The notes below the pieces were generated by a model. The model made no database searches. It was given only the letters and a program-made list of their open reading frames with translations, and had not been told where the DNA came from. Positions 54,728 to 61,513 of a stretch of 64,000 nucleotides of DNA are shown piece after piece. Source of the DNA: a virus (Duplodnaviria > Caudoviricetes); the IMG/VR virus record IMGVR_UViG_2896054739_000007, positions 98,560-162,559 of that record. The stretch is one strand, 5' to 3'. Made by a program: the position numbers and the translations under genes. Every line of letters begins with the position of its first letter. The first letter of the stretch is position 1.

Positions 54728-55276
54728 TTACTCTTCTATCTCAAAACGTATTTCAATATTTCTTAAAATATTATCGTCAGCCATAATCAGTGTACCGTTT
54801 TTGCCATACCAAGTATAATAATCTGTTCCTAATTTATCAGATTTTAATTCAGTTTCATCAGGTTCGCCATTTAATTTGACAAGTTCTTCATATATATCTT
54901 TTGGCATCCAATGTGAAGTGTCTATGTCAAAGTCACATATACCTAACTTATTATCATAAAATACATACTCTTTTTTGCAGTCTGCTCCAAAAAAAGTAAC
55001 GTTTGTATAAGTTATAATTGTCATTTTTTCATTATGCACACTAATATCATTTTCAGTAGTGTATTCTTTGGAAAGCTCGATTTCAAAAAGTTCATCTAAA
55101 GTAATTGCTGTTGAAATATTATTAAGTACCAAAGTTCTTGTAGCTTTGCTATTTTCGATTCTGTTTTTTAATTTCTGTTCCTTTGCATAATTTATACTAC
55201 CAATAATAATGACTGGAATCAGAATTATTGAAAAGAATATGATTAAAAATATTTTTGATCTTTTGTCTAATTTCAT
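54728..55276 (-). CDS. Membrane-anchored protein
   Basis: N-terminal TM; GAGGAG SD. Confidence 0.7.
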   Translation of the reverse strand: MKLDKRSKIFLIIFFSIILIPVIIIGSINYAKEQKLKNRIENSKATRTLVLNNISTAITLDELFEIELSKEYTTENDISVHNEKMTIITYTNVTFFGADCKKEYVFYDNKLGICDFDIDTSHWMPKDIYEELVKLNGEPDETELKSDKLGTDYYTWYGKNGTLIMADDNILRNIEIRFEIEE

Positions 55277-55340
55277 AAGTCTCTCCTCGTATTTGAAATG
55301 ATAGGTTAATTATACCATTGTTCTGTCAAAAAGTATATAA

Positions 55341-55475
55341 GCGATTCTCCACAAATCGCCGTGACTCTCCACAAGTTGCAAATATTATAGTATGATATTC
55401 AAAACAATTAACAGTTCTGTTGACGAAACAAGAACGAATGTTTTGAATAGCATTTTGACGAAATACGTATTATAA
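55341..55475 (+). other. Second 3' splice-acceptor cassette with a 26-codon exon
   Basis: Two CTCCACA-loop hairpins, ATAGTATG|ATATTCAAAACA (G at 55394), reads IFKTINSSVDETRTNVLNSILTKYVL*. Confidence 0.75.
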
Positions 55476-55521: not shown

Positions 55522-56109
55522 ATGATACTAAAGACATATCACGGAACAAATTTAAGTTCTGCGTTTGATATATGGCTACATGGAATAGATTTTAATAAAA
55601 GTCTGCCAAATTTGGATTTTGGTAAAGGATTTTATGTAACTGATTATAAAGAAAAAGCAATTGAACGAGCTTTAAAAAAGACAAACGATTATAACAGAAG
55701 ATATAACTGTAGAGAAGACCCATATCTGGTTGAAGTATCTATTGAAGATGATCTGTGGAAAGAAATGAATGCAAAATTTTTCTACCCAAGAGAAAAAGAT
55801 TGGTTCAATTTTGTTATAAATAATCGTTTAGAATTATCTTATTTGAATAAACATAATATATTTAACCATAACAAAGATAATAAATATGATATGGTTTATG
55901 GTGAAATAGCTGATGGTAAGATTGCTGAAATTGCCAATGCTATAAAAAACAGAAAACTAGAATTAAAAGATTTAAATTATTCAGATATCCTACCAAAATA
56001 TGGAGTATTTTACGGCAGTCAATATTCTTTTCATACTGAAAAATCTTTATCTTGCATAAAAAACATTTCTTGTGCTATAATAAAGAAAAGAAAATCAGGA
56101 AGGAGATAG
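55522..56109 (+). CDS. DUF3990-family (ADP-ribosyltransferase-like) protein
   Basis: YHGT..DFGKGFYVT..WFNFVINNR..YDMVYGEIADG..QYSFHTEKSL. Confidence 0.85.
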   Translation: MILKTYHGTNLSSAFDIWLHGIDFNKSLPNLDFGKGFYVTDYKEKAIERALKKTNDYNRRYNCREDPYLVEVSIEDDLWKEMNAKFFYPREKDWFNFVINNRLELSYLNKHNIFNHNKDNKYDMVYGEIADGKIAEIANAIKNRKLELKDLNYSDILPKYGVFYGSQYSFHTEKSLSCIKNISCAIIKKRKSGRR

Positions 56110-58239: not shown

Positions 58240-58447
58240 AAACTATCCACCTCTTTGAATAGAATACCATATATCTTGGTTAAAATCTATAAAAAGTAGA
58301 ATTATATTGACAGGTTACATTTTATAGAATATAATTGTTTTATCTATCAAACATAGATATTGCAAAAAACGCATAAATAAGTATATGTTCTGATTGTATT
58401 ACTTGGTAAATAATGGTAAAATTAAGGAGGTAACGGAGGATATGGGG

Positions 58448-59977
58448 ATGCTTAAGTCGATTAGTTTGGAGAATTATAAGTGTTTTAAAGAAAAGACAGA
58501 TATAGATATTGCTCCTCTCACAGTTTTGTGTGGGGTAAATAGTAGTGGGAAAAGCTCTATTTTGAAGAGTTTGTTGATGTTGAAACAGAGTTATGAGAGT
58601 GAATCTTCTTCTCATTCTTTATTATTATCGGGTGATTATGTTGATAATGGTTCTTTTGATGATATTATTTATCATAATAAAAAAGATGACATTAACAAGA
58701 ACACAACTTTTAAAATTACAAATACCTATTTAATAAGAGATACCTCCAATGAACAAGGCAAGAACTTGGTTAAAAGACAGGATATTGTTTCTTTTAAGGA
58801 ATTAAAAAGAGTATTTTATCAAATTAAAGACATTAAAAAAGTTAAATATTTCAAATTACTTATTGAAATTATTGTGGAACGTCCTAATGAATCAGAAGCG
58901 TCTTTTGAATTTTATATAGAGAGTAATATTATCAGATCATATAATATAGAATTAGAATTATTAGATTCTAACCAAAAATCTATTGATGATTTAACACATT
59001 ACATTTATATAACAAAGAACGAACATTCCGAAAAAGCTGGCTGGGTTCTAAATGTTAATGGAATTCCTTCCACTAAAGGAACCATACCAACGATTCTTTG
59101 TAATTATCCTTGTACATGTTACTTTTCTGGTTTACAAATCAAAAATTTGTATGCAGATAGTATGCCAAGAGACGTTATTTATACTCTTCCAAATTTATTA
59201 TCAATATTCAAAATTGCTGCTTTTCAAACAGATGGTATTAACTTTATTGCTCCATTAAGAGAACAGCCAGTAAGAAGGTATAGTTTAAATGGTAATGTTG
59301 ATTCAGTTGGCATTTCTGGCGAAAAAATGCCTATGTTATTAGCAAAAGAATATAATAGTATAAAAACAGATTGTATACCTCCAATTGTGTTACAAAATGG
59401 CGAAAAAAAATATGTGAAATGGGGATTCAAAAAAGATACATTCAGTGGTTTAGTAAGAAGATGGATGAATTATTTAGAATTAGGTACTTTAGATTTAGCT
59501 AATAAAACAAATGGATTGATTTCACTTAATATTAATGAACATAATATTGTAGATGTTGGCTTTGGAGTGGGTCAAGCTCTTCCTATAATTGTTCAGGGAT
59601 TGTATATGAATAAAGACCAATCTTTATTACTTGAACAACCTGAAATACATCTTCATCCAGAAATGCAACTGCAAATGGCAGACTTTCTTATTGCTCTTGC
59701 TAAAAATGAAAAAAATGTAATAGTTGAAACTCATAGTGACCATTTTATTAATAGGATTATTCATCGTGTTATGCAAAATTATGATGAATTAAACGATATT
59801 ATCAAAATTTATATTGTTGAAAAGAACGAGGAAACACATAGTTCTAATGTACGTTTAAAGAAGATAGATAAATATAAGGGAACTGAAAAAGATAAGAGCA
59901 AATTCTTTTTTACTCAATATGATTCCGAAATAACAGATATTGTAGATACTGGCTTAAACAATATGATGGAGATATAA
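58448..59977 (+). CDS. ABC-type AAA ATPase (AAA_15/AAA_21, DUF3696-like), defence-associated
   Basis: LENYKCF, GVNSSGKSS, VGFGVGQALP, LLEQPEIHLHP, VETHSDH. Confidence 0.88.
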   Translation: MLKSISLENYKCFKEKTDIDIAPLTVLCGVNSSGKSSILKSLLMLKQSYESESSSHSLLLSGDYVDNGSFDDIIYHNKKDDINKNTTFKITNTYLIRDTSNEQGKNLVKRQDIVSFKELKRVFYQIKDIKKVKYFKLLIEIIVERPNESEASFEFYIESNIIRSYNIELELLDSNQKSIDDLTHYIYITKNEHSEKAGWVLNVNGIPSTKGTIPTILCNYPCTCYFSGLQIKNLYADSMPRDVIYTLPNLLSIFKIAAFQTDGINFIAPLREQPVRRYSLNGNVDSVGISGEKMPMLLAKEYNSIKTDCIPPIVLQNGEKKYVKWGFKKDTFSGLVRRWMNYLELGTLDLANKTNGLISLNINEHNIVDVGFGVGQALPIIVQGLYMNKDQSLLLEQPEIHLHPEMQLQMADFLIALAKNEKNVIVETHSDHFINRIIHRVMQNYDELNDIIKIYIVEKNEETHSSNVRLKKIDKYKGTEKDKSKFFFTQYDSEITDIVDTGLNNMMEI

Positions 59978-59980
59978 ATA

Positions 59981-60865
59981 ATGAAATTAGTAATTGACCC
60001 ATCTCTTATTTGGTCTTTACCTTATGATGAGGATAATTTTAAATATTTAGATGAGCTTATAAATTTTGTAAATAAACTTTTGGTTGAAAAACATATATCA
60101 AGTGATTTGCTGATACCTCTTCTACAAAAATTAAATAAAGAGCCGTTTGATAAATACCGGGAACCAACTTCTAAAAAGAAAGAAATTGTTAGAAAGTTAT
60201 TTGATTTGTTGGACACAACCGAAAGAATAATTTTGTCTGATTATAAATGTGCGGATGGGTTAATACCAAGTAGTTATATTTCTTCTTATAATGATGATGT
60301 GAATATCTATTTTAATAAGTTGATACAATATATTATTAAAAATACTATTGAATGTGTATTATTTCTATCTCCTGATAACTTTAAAATAAATGATGAAATT
60401 GCATCATTTGTTCATTACATAAGACATATTTATAAAGAAGAAAACTCATATCTTGCGATACTTATTAGTGAAGGTGTTGGGCTTAAAAAAGATATAATTA
60501 TTGCTCCGACATTAGATGAACCATTACCAAATAAATGGTTGACAAAAGAATATCAAACTACTAGAGAAGAATTAATTAAATCTGGGAAAGCATCAATTGC
60601 TGCATTCTTATCACTAGGGAAAGAGGTTTCTTTAAGAAATGGGTATTTATTTGATGAATATTTAACTAAAATCAATAATGGTGCAATTAGAGAAATATTT
60701 AAGTCTAAAACTAAGCCAATTATCTATCTATCAACTGATGTTGAGCATGGGGCTATAGAAGTATTCAATAATAAACCAGAACATCAAGGAGAAAGTAATT
60801 ATATTGGAGATATTAAAAAAGGATCAAAAGACCCAAAAAAACATAAAATTATATTACATAAATAA
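59981..60865 (+). CDS. Partner protein of the ATPase (possible effector)
   Basis: Starts 4 nt after the ATPase stop; C-terminal YLSTDVEHGAIEVF..HQGE. Confidence 0.6.
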   Translation: MKLVIDPSLIWSLPYDEDNFKYLDELINFVNKLLVEKHISSDLLIPLLQKLNKEPFDKYREPTSKKKEIVRKLFDLLDTTERIILSDYKCADGLIPSSYISSYNDDVNIYFNKLIQYIIKNTIECVLFLSPDNFKINDEIASFVHYIRHIYKEENSYLAILISEGVGLKKDIIIAPTLDEPLPNKWLTKEYQTTREELIKSGKASIAAFLSLGKEVSLRNGYLFDEYLTKINNGAIREIFKSKTKPIIYLSTDVEHGAIEVFNNKPEHQGESNYIGDIKKGSKDPKKHKIILHK

Positions 60866-60914: not shown

Positions 60915-61469
60915 TTAAAACTTACTTCCACAATTCCCACATTTATATGTTTTACCTGCATCGTCTACTGCTCCAACTATGCCAAATGTTGCGGTTTTCA
61001 CCGCTCTTGTTGTCATAGCAATCTTTTTGATGTTAGTTGATCCGCAGATAGGACATTTAGGTATACAGCTTTGTTTGTCGTTTTCTTTTTGTATTCGGGC
61101 AAGATTTTTTGATTGCTGCTCTCCTATTTGTTTATTGTGATACTCAACAGTTTCATAATATCCTTGCTTGTTATTTTCAACTTGCTTGTTATATTCTTCT
61201 ATCGAAAATAATGAGTTTGAGGAAACCTCATTCATAATAAAGTTGTTTTCACGAGAAAGTAGTTCTTCTATTCTTCTTTTTGCTCCATCAGCCGTATTAA
61301 GCATATGAAGCTCAGAATATAATTTTGACCAATTTTCATTAAAAATGTTATATTTTTGTTTCATATCTTCTGGTAGTGTTTCCATTTTTGTGCCACAAAA
61401 ACTACACTTTTTTCCAAACAAAACGCCACCAACCCATCCACATTTCTTACAAAACATTACTTTTCCCAT
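60915..61469 (-). CDS. Zinc-ribbon protein
   Basis: CKKCG, CSFCG, PKCPICGSTNIKKI, YKCGNCGSKF. Confidence 0.8.
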   Translation of the reverse strand: MGKVMFCKKCGWVGGVLFGKKCSFCGTKMETLPEDMKQKYNIFNENWSKLYSELHMLNTADGAKRRIEELLSRENNFIMNEVSSNSLFSIEEYNKQVENNKQGYYETVEYHNKQIGEQQSKNLARIQKENDKQSCIPKCPICGSTNIKKIAMTTRAVKTATFGIVGAVDDAGKTYKCGNCGSKF

Positions 61470-61513
61470 GAAGAATCACCTCGTTATTTGTCTGTATTAT
61501 AGCATACAAAAAG

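Follow-up and report, generated by a model that had tools for sequence, protein, structure and literature searches.

A probable fossil 3′ splice-site module inside the cargo-filled tape-measure intron of a gut prophage

The tail tape-measure gene of a gut prophage is split by a putative intron of 15.5 kb that is filled with cargo genes. Our analysis of a 64,000-nt stretch of this prophage (hereafter the window) suggests that an internal site of this intron, at positions 55341-55475, is a fossil 3′ splice-site module. According to this reading, to which we assign a probability of about 0.6 from sequence comparisons, an acceptor and the start of an earlier exon 2 would have been internalised when a module made of cargo, acceptor and exon was grafted behind them, and the site would now be masked by a hairpin. 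The first-pass annotation of this DNA had proposed two readings, either a relic of this kind or an alternative site that is functional and yields a shortened tape-measure protein. The relic part is supported by the homology, synteny and recurrence of the site, which are described below; a functional alternative site with a truncated product is not the reading that we favour. In particular, the truncated protein put forward in the title of that annotation is unlikely, since the peptide and its stop vary among five copies of the site, the guide target is predicted to be hidden and copies other than that of the window show decay of an octamer shared by acceptors.

The window lies within a large SPbeta-like prophage carried by a Lachnospiraceae genome; among the relatives found, the closest is a prophage of Lachnospiraceae bacterium A4. 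The front of the tape-measure gene is an ORF located at 44112-46103, from which an unspliced mRNA would give a 663-aa product. Exon 1 proper (44112-46094, + strand) has 661 codons, encodes a PhageMin_Tail domain and ends with GTCGGT, its last codon being complete at 46094. Exon 2 (61604-64000, + strand) is a long frame devoid of a ribosome-binding site that runs past the contig end. When exon 1 cut at 46094 is joined to exon 2 starting at 61604, the product aligns with tape-measure proteins that have no interruption (L023, L026, L037, L052 and L063), each alignment running through residue 661 in a single segment. Therefore, the gene is split exactly at 46094/61604. A search of IMG/VR for an intron-less allele carrying the junction ..GTCGGT/ATATTCAA.. 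returned 74 matches, none of which lies in a tape-measure gene, and no GenBank phage matched either the exon-1/core region (megablast, blastn) or exon 2 (tblastn).

Other tape-measure genes are also interrupted. About half of the 46 related genes examined from IMG/VR (L018-L063) stop at a conserved ..KN[FVY][GD] and resume 1.7-7 kb downstream, and these interruptions have no detectable similarity to the ribozyme of the window; several unrelated intervening elements seem to share one insertion site in this gene. Furthermore, exon 1 of G187 and G167 contains a further gap of 1.5-1.8 kb (L204 7816-9338; L205 11897-10122), which is probably another intron at a second site.

Exon 1 of the window is directly followed by a structured RNA of about 390 nt (46095-46480, + strand), the ribozyme core. 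It harbors td-like P/Q elements (ACGGGGAA and AUCCGCAGG), and its helices show 24 compensatory pairs among six homologues. P1 associates GTCGGT (46089-46094) with the internal guide GCCGAC (46147-46152, + strand) and places a U.G wobble at the 5′ splice site; the equivalent in G167 is GTGGGT with GCCTAC. For the P3/P7 pseudoknot, a single 4-bp candidate, read by eye, covaries with L084. Rfam searches (window, 18.5 kb at E<=10, 600-nt core, gathering score, relatives) did not return group I or any other family of relevance. Since no Rfam model matches and P3/P7 is not assignable, the ribozyme is, judging from these sequence features, described here as group-I-like. The ribozyme guide extends over 46120-46146 (+ strand). 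Its 12 bases preceding GCCGAC are complementary to the first 12 bases of the distal exon 2, which is itself preceded by a G, and in relatives, too, each guide is complementary to the start of its own exon 2. Past the core, about 15 kb of DNA carry genes in both orientations, most of them defence-like. In the last core hairpin, the 3′ strand (ACAGTATATTATTCAG, 46460-46475) is acceptor-like and has no terminal G; it may stand in for an original 3′ splice site located nearby or be what remains of it.

Three hairpins located just after the core (46496-46599, + strand; z = -5.2) expose the loops GUGGAU, GUGGAG and GUGGAA. These loops are complementary to those of the hairpins that precede the acceptors, and GUGGAG exactly matches both CUCCACA loops of the internal site. 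GUGGA and CCACA are used by G187, G167, G373 and the clade of the window. In a second intron clade (L064-L071, G202, L084 and L095), the post-core loops are GUUUGA or GUUUGG and the acceptor hairpins carry UCAAACA. This covariation of loops between clades therefore indicates that the hairpins are real recognition ("address") elements, and the internal module bears the address of the window's own ribozyme. The distal acceptor (61510-61603, + strand; z = -5.8) consists of three address hairpins followed by ATAGTATG. A third copy of the module, with two hairpins, lies on the minus strand (46847-46915) in the leader of a 72-aa peptide gene (46821-46603) and is conserved in relatives. The 20-mer ATAGTATGATATTCACAACA, searched with at most 3 mismatches, is found three times in the window (46847-46866 on the minus strand, 55387-55406 and 61596-61615 on the plus strand), for 0.04 copies expected.

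Two DNA rearrangements were considered and rejected. If the DNA were excised from one TAGTATG repeat (46115-46122) to the other (61596-61603), a TAA would remain in frame, and DNA inversion between minus- and plus-strand modules would bring no exon beside the core.

The internal module carries the same elements. The two hairpins with CUCCACA loops, ATAGTATG, the 12 nt that nearly match the guide and the in-frame ORF of 26 codons are all present where the first-pass annotation had placed them, and a minus-strand gene encoding a membrane protein (54728-55276) lies back to back with the module, as it had also indicated. Address hairpin 1 (55341-55359, + strand) has a 6-bp stem (gcgatt/aatcgc) and a 7-nt CTCCACA loop; hairpin 2 (55361-55379, + strand) presents the same loop on a 6-bp stem that includes two G.U pairs (gtgact/agttgc). 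Folding of 55335-55410 gives z = -2.4, hairpin 1 being solid and hairpin 2 marginal in the minimum-energy fold. Taken by itself, the CTCCACA motif shows no enrichment in the window (18 occurrences, 14 expected); what matters is its hairpin context and clustering. The octamer ATAGTATG (55387-55394, + strand) ends in the would-be terminal G of the intron, so that the omega-G expected at a 3′ splice site is found at 55394, directly before the stub. The first seven bases of this octamer (AUAGUAU, 55387-55393) are complementary over 7 bp to AUACUAU of the core (46442-46448), a candidate P9.0-type pairing, although the same core strand has a predicted local partner and the complement is absent from L084.

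The guide (P10) target ATATTCAAAACA (55395-55406, + strand) matches the guide TGTTGTGAATGT (46135-46146) at 11 of 12 positions, in agreement with the initial claim, and pairing continues over 55408-55415. With the 27-nt guide, the stub pairs over 7+4+8 bp at -15.8 kcal/mol, compared with -16.4 kcal/mol for the distal site. The exon-2 stub itself (55395-55475, + strand) comprises 26 codons and a TAA (55473-55475) in frame with exon 1. Homology to real exon-2 starts covers its first 14 codons or so (about 45 nt), and the remainder is unrelated to them; a frame that stays open over 26 codons has no significance by itself. No further stub was found in the window. The first gene past the stub, which would belong to a segment added later, is a DUF3990 gene (55522-56109, + strand; PADLOC PDC-M13-like).

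The same bases can also be read as a promoter or another regulatory site unrelated to splicing, with TCCACA as -35 box, a 17-nt spacer and TATGAT as -10 box. Indeed, a promoter scan lists TCCACA-17-TATGAT at 55368-55396 (9/12), and the distal copy shows a spacing of 16 nt. However, such sites are as numerous in the window as in shuffled sequences (14 versus 14.8), the UCAAACA loops of the other clade do not fit a -35 box and have different spacings, and a transcript starting there would lack the hairpins. Moreover, the loops covary with the ribozyme-adjacent loops and the 12 nt past the G covary with the guide. We thus hold a promoter to be very improbable.

Evidence for a former splice site comes from relatives. 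The first-pass annotation had suggested that the mini-exon be searched against the exon-2 starts of related tape-measure genes, and this search is positive: IFKTINSSVDETR matches well past the guide-paired bases. Over nt 13-45, i.e. outside the bases constrained by the guide, the stub is identical to G373 at 24 of 33 positions and to G202 at 23 of 33, versus 13-15 of 33 for unrelated exon 2s. At the protein level, IFKTINSSVDETR of the stub compares with IFKTINSSVDKTR. In G373, four CCACA hairpins and ATAGTACG are followed by IFKTINSSVDKTRQTLALFNKDW.., a frame that stays open to the contig end, and in G202, IFKTIDSSVDNTRK.. heads a frame open over at least 1120 aa; the corresponding stub sequence is IFKTINSSVDETRT.. 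Furthermore, L095 and L132 show the same succession of the 54728-55276 gene, spacer and acceptor, and in both of them a frame that remains open up to the locus end follows the acceptor (624 aa in L095, 516 aa in L132). This exon-start homology and upstream synteny therefore suggest that the module and its stub were once a true 3′ end of the intron and the start of a tape-measure back half.

L095 and L132 were recovered from IMG/VR, together with L084, by a 15-mer acceptor pattern whose other matches are mostly due to chance. The acceptor of G131 spans a contig break and is not readable. A matrix of duplex energies between guides and exons does not separate cognate from non-cognate pairs; exon starts are all alike and the stub is not assignable to one guide by this means.

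The same stub, with an early stop, recurs in three metagenome contigs (L208, L209 and L210) and in Lachnospiraceae bacterium A4 (L211, the same as L190). All five copies share IFKTINSSVD and then diverge into the tails ECFGY, LFWIYILKK.., LFWV, LFWIFV and ETRTNVLNSILTKYVL, each ended by a stop, after 14-26 codons in total (14-24 in the copies outside the window). This lack of conservation of the peptide tail makes a selected truncated protein unlikely. The DNA flanking the stub is unrelated on both sides in all five copies, which probably derive from one event and are not independent. The octamer ATAGTAYG is present in about 13 of 15 real acceptors; within the stub family, it is intact in the window and mutated in the four other copies, and these substitutions point to a relaxed constraint as acceptor. 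CUCCACA-loop hairpins on different stems are found in three of the four other stub copies. In addition, the stub of L208-L211 forms a nearly perfect 19-bp inverted repeat.

Acceptors also occur in series. L208 and L210 each carry three acceptor modules spaced 0.8-2 kb apart, the last acceptor of L208 heading a 1705-aa frame, and G187 has a 44-codon stub located 1.4 kb before its real acceptor (1233 aa). In the closest relative (L190), the stub copy is decayed and has neither hairpins nor terminal G. Moreover, the stub of L208 sits behind a hairpin block that precedes a real exon in L190 (79% identity over 841 nt).

Two observations run against a mere relic. The window copy is the best preserved of its family, with two good loops, an intact octamer and a long-guide pairing close to that of the distal site, and a neutral relic need not look so intact. 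Furthermore, the real site of L190 tolerates a central mismatch identical to that of the stub.

The guide target of the stub is predicted to be masked in the free RNA. A hairpin (55392-55455, + strand) pairs 55396-55406 with 55439-55449 over 11 perfect bp, with AUG/CAU at its base and an energy of -16.6 kcal/mol; perfect inverted repeats of this length (11 bp) within 130 nt are found at only 3.3e-4 of the window positions. For the first 12 bases of the stub, the pairing probability is 0.89 in three sequence contexts, compared with 0.2-0.66 for about 13 real acceptors, and this value is the highest among the 15 acceptor modules compared, other copies of the stub family aside. In the stub copies of L208 and L210, the target has a pairing probability of 0.99-1.00 in all three folding contexts; in that of L209, it reaches 0.99 only in the short context, against 0.39 in both longer contexts. 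Other types of stub are unmasked. To our reading, a mask over the guide-pairing bases of a stub is a new feature described here.

The mask helix is retained in all five stub copies, with 95.8% of cells paired, a conservation that is biased for the left arm since the copies were located by exact-pattern scans whose pattern fixes this arm. The helix shows three one-sided wobble changes and no compensatory double change; therefore, selection at the RNA level is suggested, not proven. The mask could equally be a DNA palindrome. When the five copies are aligned, the end of the mask hairpin is precisely where the conserved unit stops, the flanks differing on both sides.

Another possibility is that the acceptor core and the stub palindrome form a unit maintained at the DNA level, either as a crossover joint or as the footprint of fold-back repair at a break made by a homing nuclease. 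Cargo cassettes would be exchanged through this joint, which would be kept for, or regenerated by, recombination and not for an RNA function. Such a unit would account for a stub hairpin of 42-57 nt that is conserved between different flanks in all five genomes, for stub break points that cluster 20-45 nt into the exon and for hairpin blocks swapped between stubs and real acceptors. The 19-bp inverted repeat of L208-L211 is what fold-back synthesis is expected to produce, and a DUF262/GmrSD_N nuclease-like gene adjoins the ribozyme in all relatives. However, no recombinase or nuclease is known to be linked with the site, the differences between the arms, just two or three in number, allow wobble pairing on the plus strand, and the fixed left arm of the search pattern biases its apparent conservation. 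We consider this explanation rather improbable; it overlaps the fossil explanation and does not exclude it.

Some of the cargo genes deserve mention in their own right. The DUF262/GmrSD_N protein (PADLOC NsnA-like) is encoded at 47090-48070, after the ribozyme and the peptide gene, and is found in every relative fetched with 38-78% identity; it may be the homing nuclease of the intron or have another intron-linked function instead of being free cargo. Genes encoding NsnB-like (AAA_15) and NsnC-like proteins (58442-60865) are located 10 kb from the NsnA-like gene, and no homologues of these two genes were found in the intron parts of relatives that were compared. A zinc-ribbon protein family, represented in the window at 60915-61469 (minus strand), recurs back to back with distal acceptors (L015, L043, L066, L127 and others); several copies occur per intron in relatives, and only the last 50 residues or so are widely conserved. 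In addition, the intron cargo of the G167 prophage includes a skipping-rope RNA (Rfam RF02924, 74.7 bits; L205 6499-6581).

Four strong plus-strand terminators, at 46894, 48090, 49704 and 50980, separate the core from either acceptor. Therefore, the two halves of the gene may meet in trans through kissing loops. If they do, any stub-bearing transcript could compete for the ribozyme, which would explain why the mask is kept. The first of these terminators corresponds to an acceptor hairpin of the minus-strand module: viewed on the plus strand (46894-46910), about 420 nt past the core, it is a terminator-like stem followed by TTTTTT, and it could end an exon-1-plus-ribozyme transcript.

These considerations bear on the other reading of the initial proposal, namely a working alternative or decoy acceptor, used in cis or docked in trans via kissing loops, for which the hairpin would be a conditional lock. 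Its use would give a 687-aa truncated protein, titrate the supply of full-length protein or place DUF3990 on a late transcript. The window copy indeed keeps all recognition elements, three of the four other copies retain CUCCACA loops on different stems, and the address loops covary with the post-core loops between clades. Moreover, the widely conserved copy at 46847-46915, located in a gene leader, indicates that modules can be kept outside the tape-measure gene, and the four terminators make an association in trans plausible. However, the guide target is sequestered with a pairing probability of 0.89, neither the peptide nor the position of its stop is conserved, and the octamer is mutated in four of the five copies. 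Besides, the 663-aa unspliced product already exists, so a stub product would add little, and what lies past the stub elsewhere is unrelated DNA, including the 3′ ends of minus-strand genes, with no consistent downstream gene. The start codon of DUF3990 is also sequestered in an ordinary way, 4 of 29 window genes being as paired. Weighing both sides, we find a functional acceptor of this kind unlikely.

There is an even slimmer chance that the masked stub is kept as a conditional acceptor docking the exon-1-plus-ribozyme RNA of its own prophage or of an infecting relative using the same loop code. If this were true, the full-length tape-measure protein would be throttled or a related superinfecting phage sabotaged, and DUF3990 could be coupled to late expression. 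A switch in which translation through the stub unlocks the start codon of DUF3990 was considered and rejected, because the pairing of this start is ordinary and the alternative folds are unstable.

We therefore return to the fossil module as the preferred reading. The module contains address hairpins, the octamer with its terminal G, the guide-pairing bases and the first 14 codons or so of an exon 2, and would formerly have headed the back half of a tape-measure gene. A DNA segment (now 55.4-64 kb) that brought more cargo, together with an acceptor of its own and a further exon 2, would then have been joined a few codons into the old exon. Such a joining would have cost nothing because everything upstream of the new acceptor leaves with the intron. 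The core shared by all acceptors, ATAGTATG/ATATTCAA.ACAAT, would have served as crossover point, and hence blocks on either side of it would be reshuffled among phages and stubs would accumulate in series. Acceptor modules would thus be portable, with crossovers inside or just past the shared core and stubs as leftovers. The module may be an old acceptor of its own lineage or may have been imported with cargo from another phage. By its address loops, terminal G and guide pairing, the fossil still looks legible to the ribozyme. However, since its guide-pairing bases are predicted to be buried in a stable and conserved hairpin, it would today probably be silent, or a weak decoy at most.

The distal acceptor retains possible traces of a comparable event. 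Alignment with the stub reveals a degenerate older exon-2 start (ATATTCGGAAATACAATAACAG, IFGNTITDV; 61634-61655, + strand), in frame and 10 codons inside exon 2, and the first 18 bases of the distal exon 2 resemble the minus-strand module at 46847. Therefore, the distal acceptor looks as if it had been grafted before an older exon start.

The stub can be viewed as direct sequence evidence for the way in which very large cargo-bearing introns evolve in phage tail genes. Units made of an acceptor and an exon start would be grafted whole, old acceptors would be fossilised and cargo would build up with the tail gene unharmed, phages swapping tail-gene ends and gaining cargo through the same modules. 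The stub also defines a discrimination task for the ribozyme, i.e. a near-perfect internal acceptor that is apparently neutralised by a hairpin, and together with its mask it provides a simple experimental handle on the choice of the 3′ site and on the cis or trans association of the two halves.

In the literature that we searched, no paper was found that describes address hairpins, acceptor arrays or fossil acceptors; several known systems nevertheless share parts of this organisation. The group I intron of phage T4 nrdD (sunY) reportedly has a remote 3′ splice junction, its core being located at the 5′ end of the intron and followed by an ORF and then by a small 3′-terminal element that pairs back (P9.0/P10). 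As in sunY, cargo lies here between a 5′ core and a remote 3′ splice site. However, the distance is 9-15 kb in our element, with many genes on both strands and several terminators, and the kissing-loop address hairpin arrays and the presence of more than one acceptor module, one of which is a stub with no exon behind, also distinguish it from sunY. The group II intron C.te.I1 is said to use alternative 3′ sites that lead to different functional protein isoforms. Here too, more than one sequence obeys the 3′-site rules of one ribozyme, but what stands for an alternative "exon" is a stub of 26 codons that is not conserved and has its pairing bases masked.

The same kind of host gene is occupied in prophages of the Bacillus cereus group by TMP-IVS1, TMP-IVS2 and TMP-IVS3, which are compact group I introns (IA1, IA2) of tape-measure genes (PMC2504315). 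These introns share with ours an in-frame insertion, an early intron stop codon and P1/P10 pairings fitted to the site. They differ from it by their size (a few hundred bases or one homing-endonuclease gene) and their single adjacent 3′ splice site (PMC2504315); besides, they are recognisable as IA1 or IA2, whereas the core described here matches no Rfam model. IStrons result from the fusion of a group I ribozyme with an IS200/IS605 or IS607 element (PMC4227781). They carry as cargo a transposon of 1-2 kb, complete with ends and a transposase of its own, and no fossil acceptors in series are described for them in PMC4227781; unlike them, our element carries 5-15 kb of mixed defence-like genes and no transposase. 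Both nevertheless associate a 5′ ribozyme, cargo genes and a 3′ splice site located beyond, so that the cargo is harmless once spliced out and the chimera can grow by DNA recombination.
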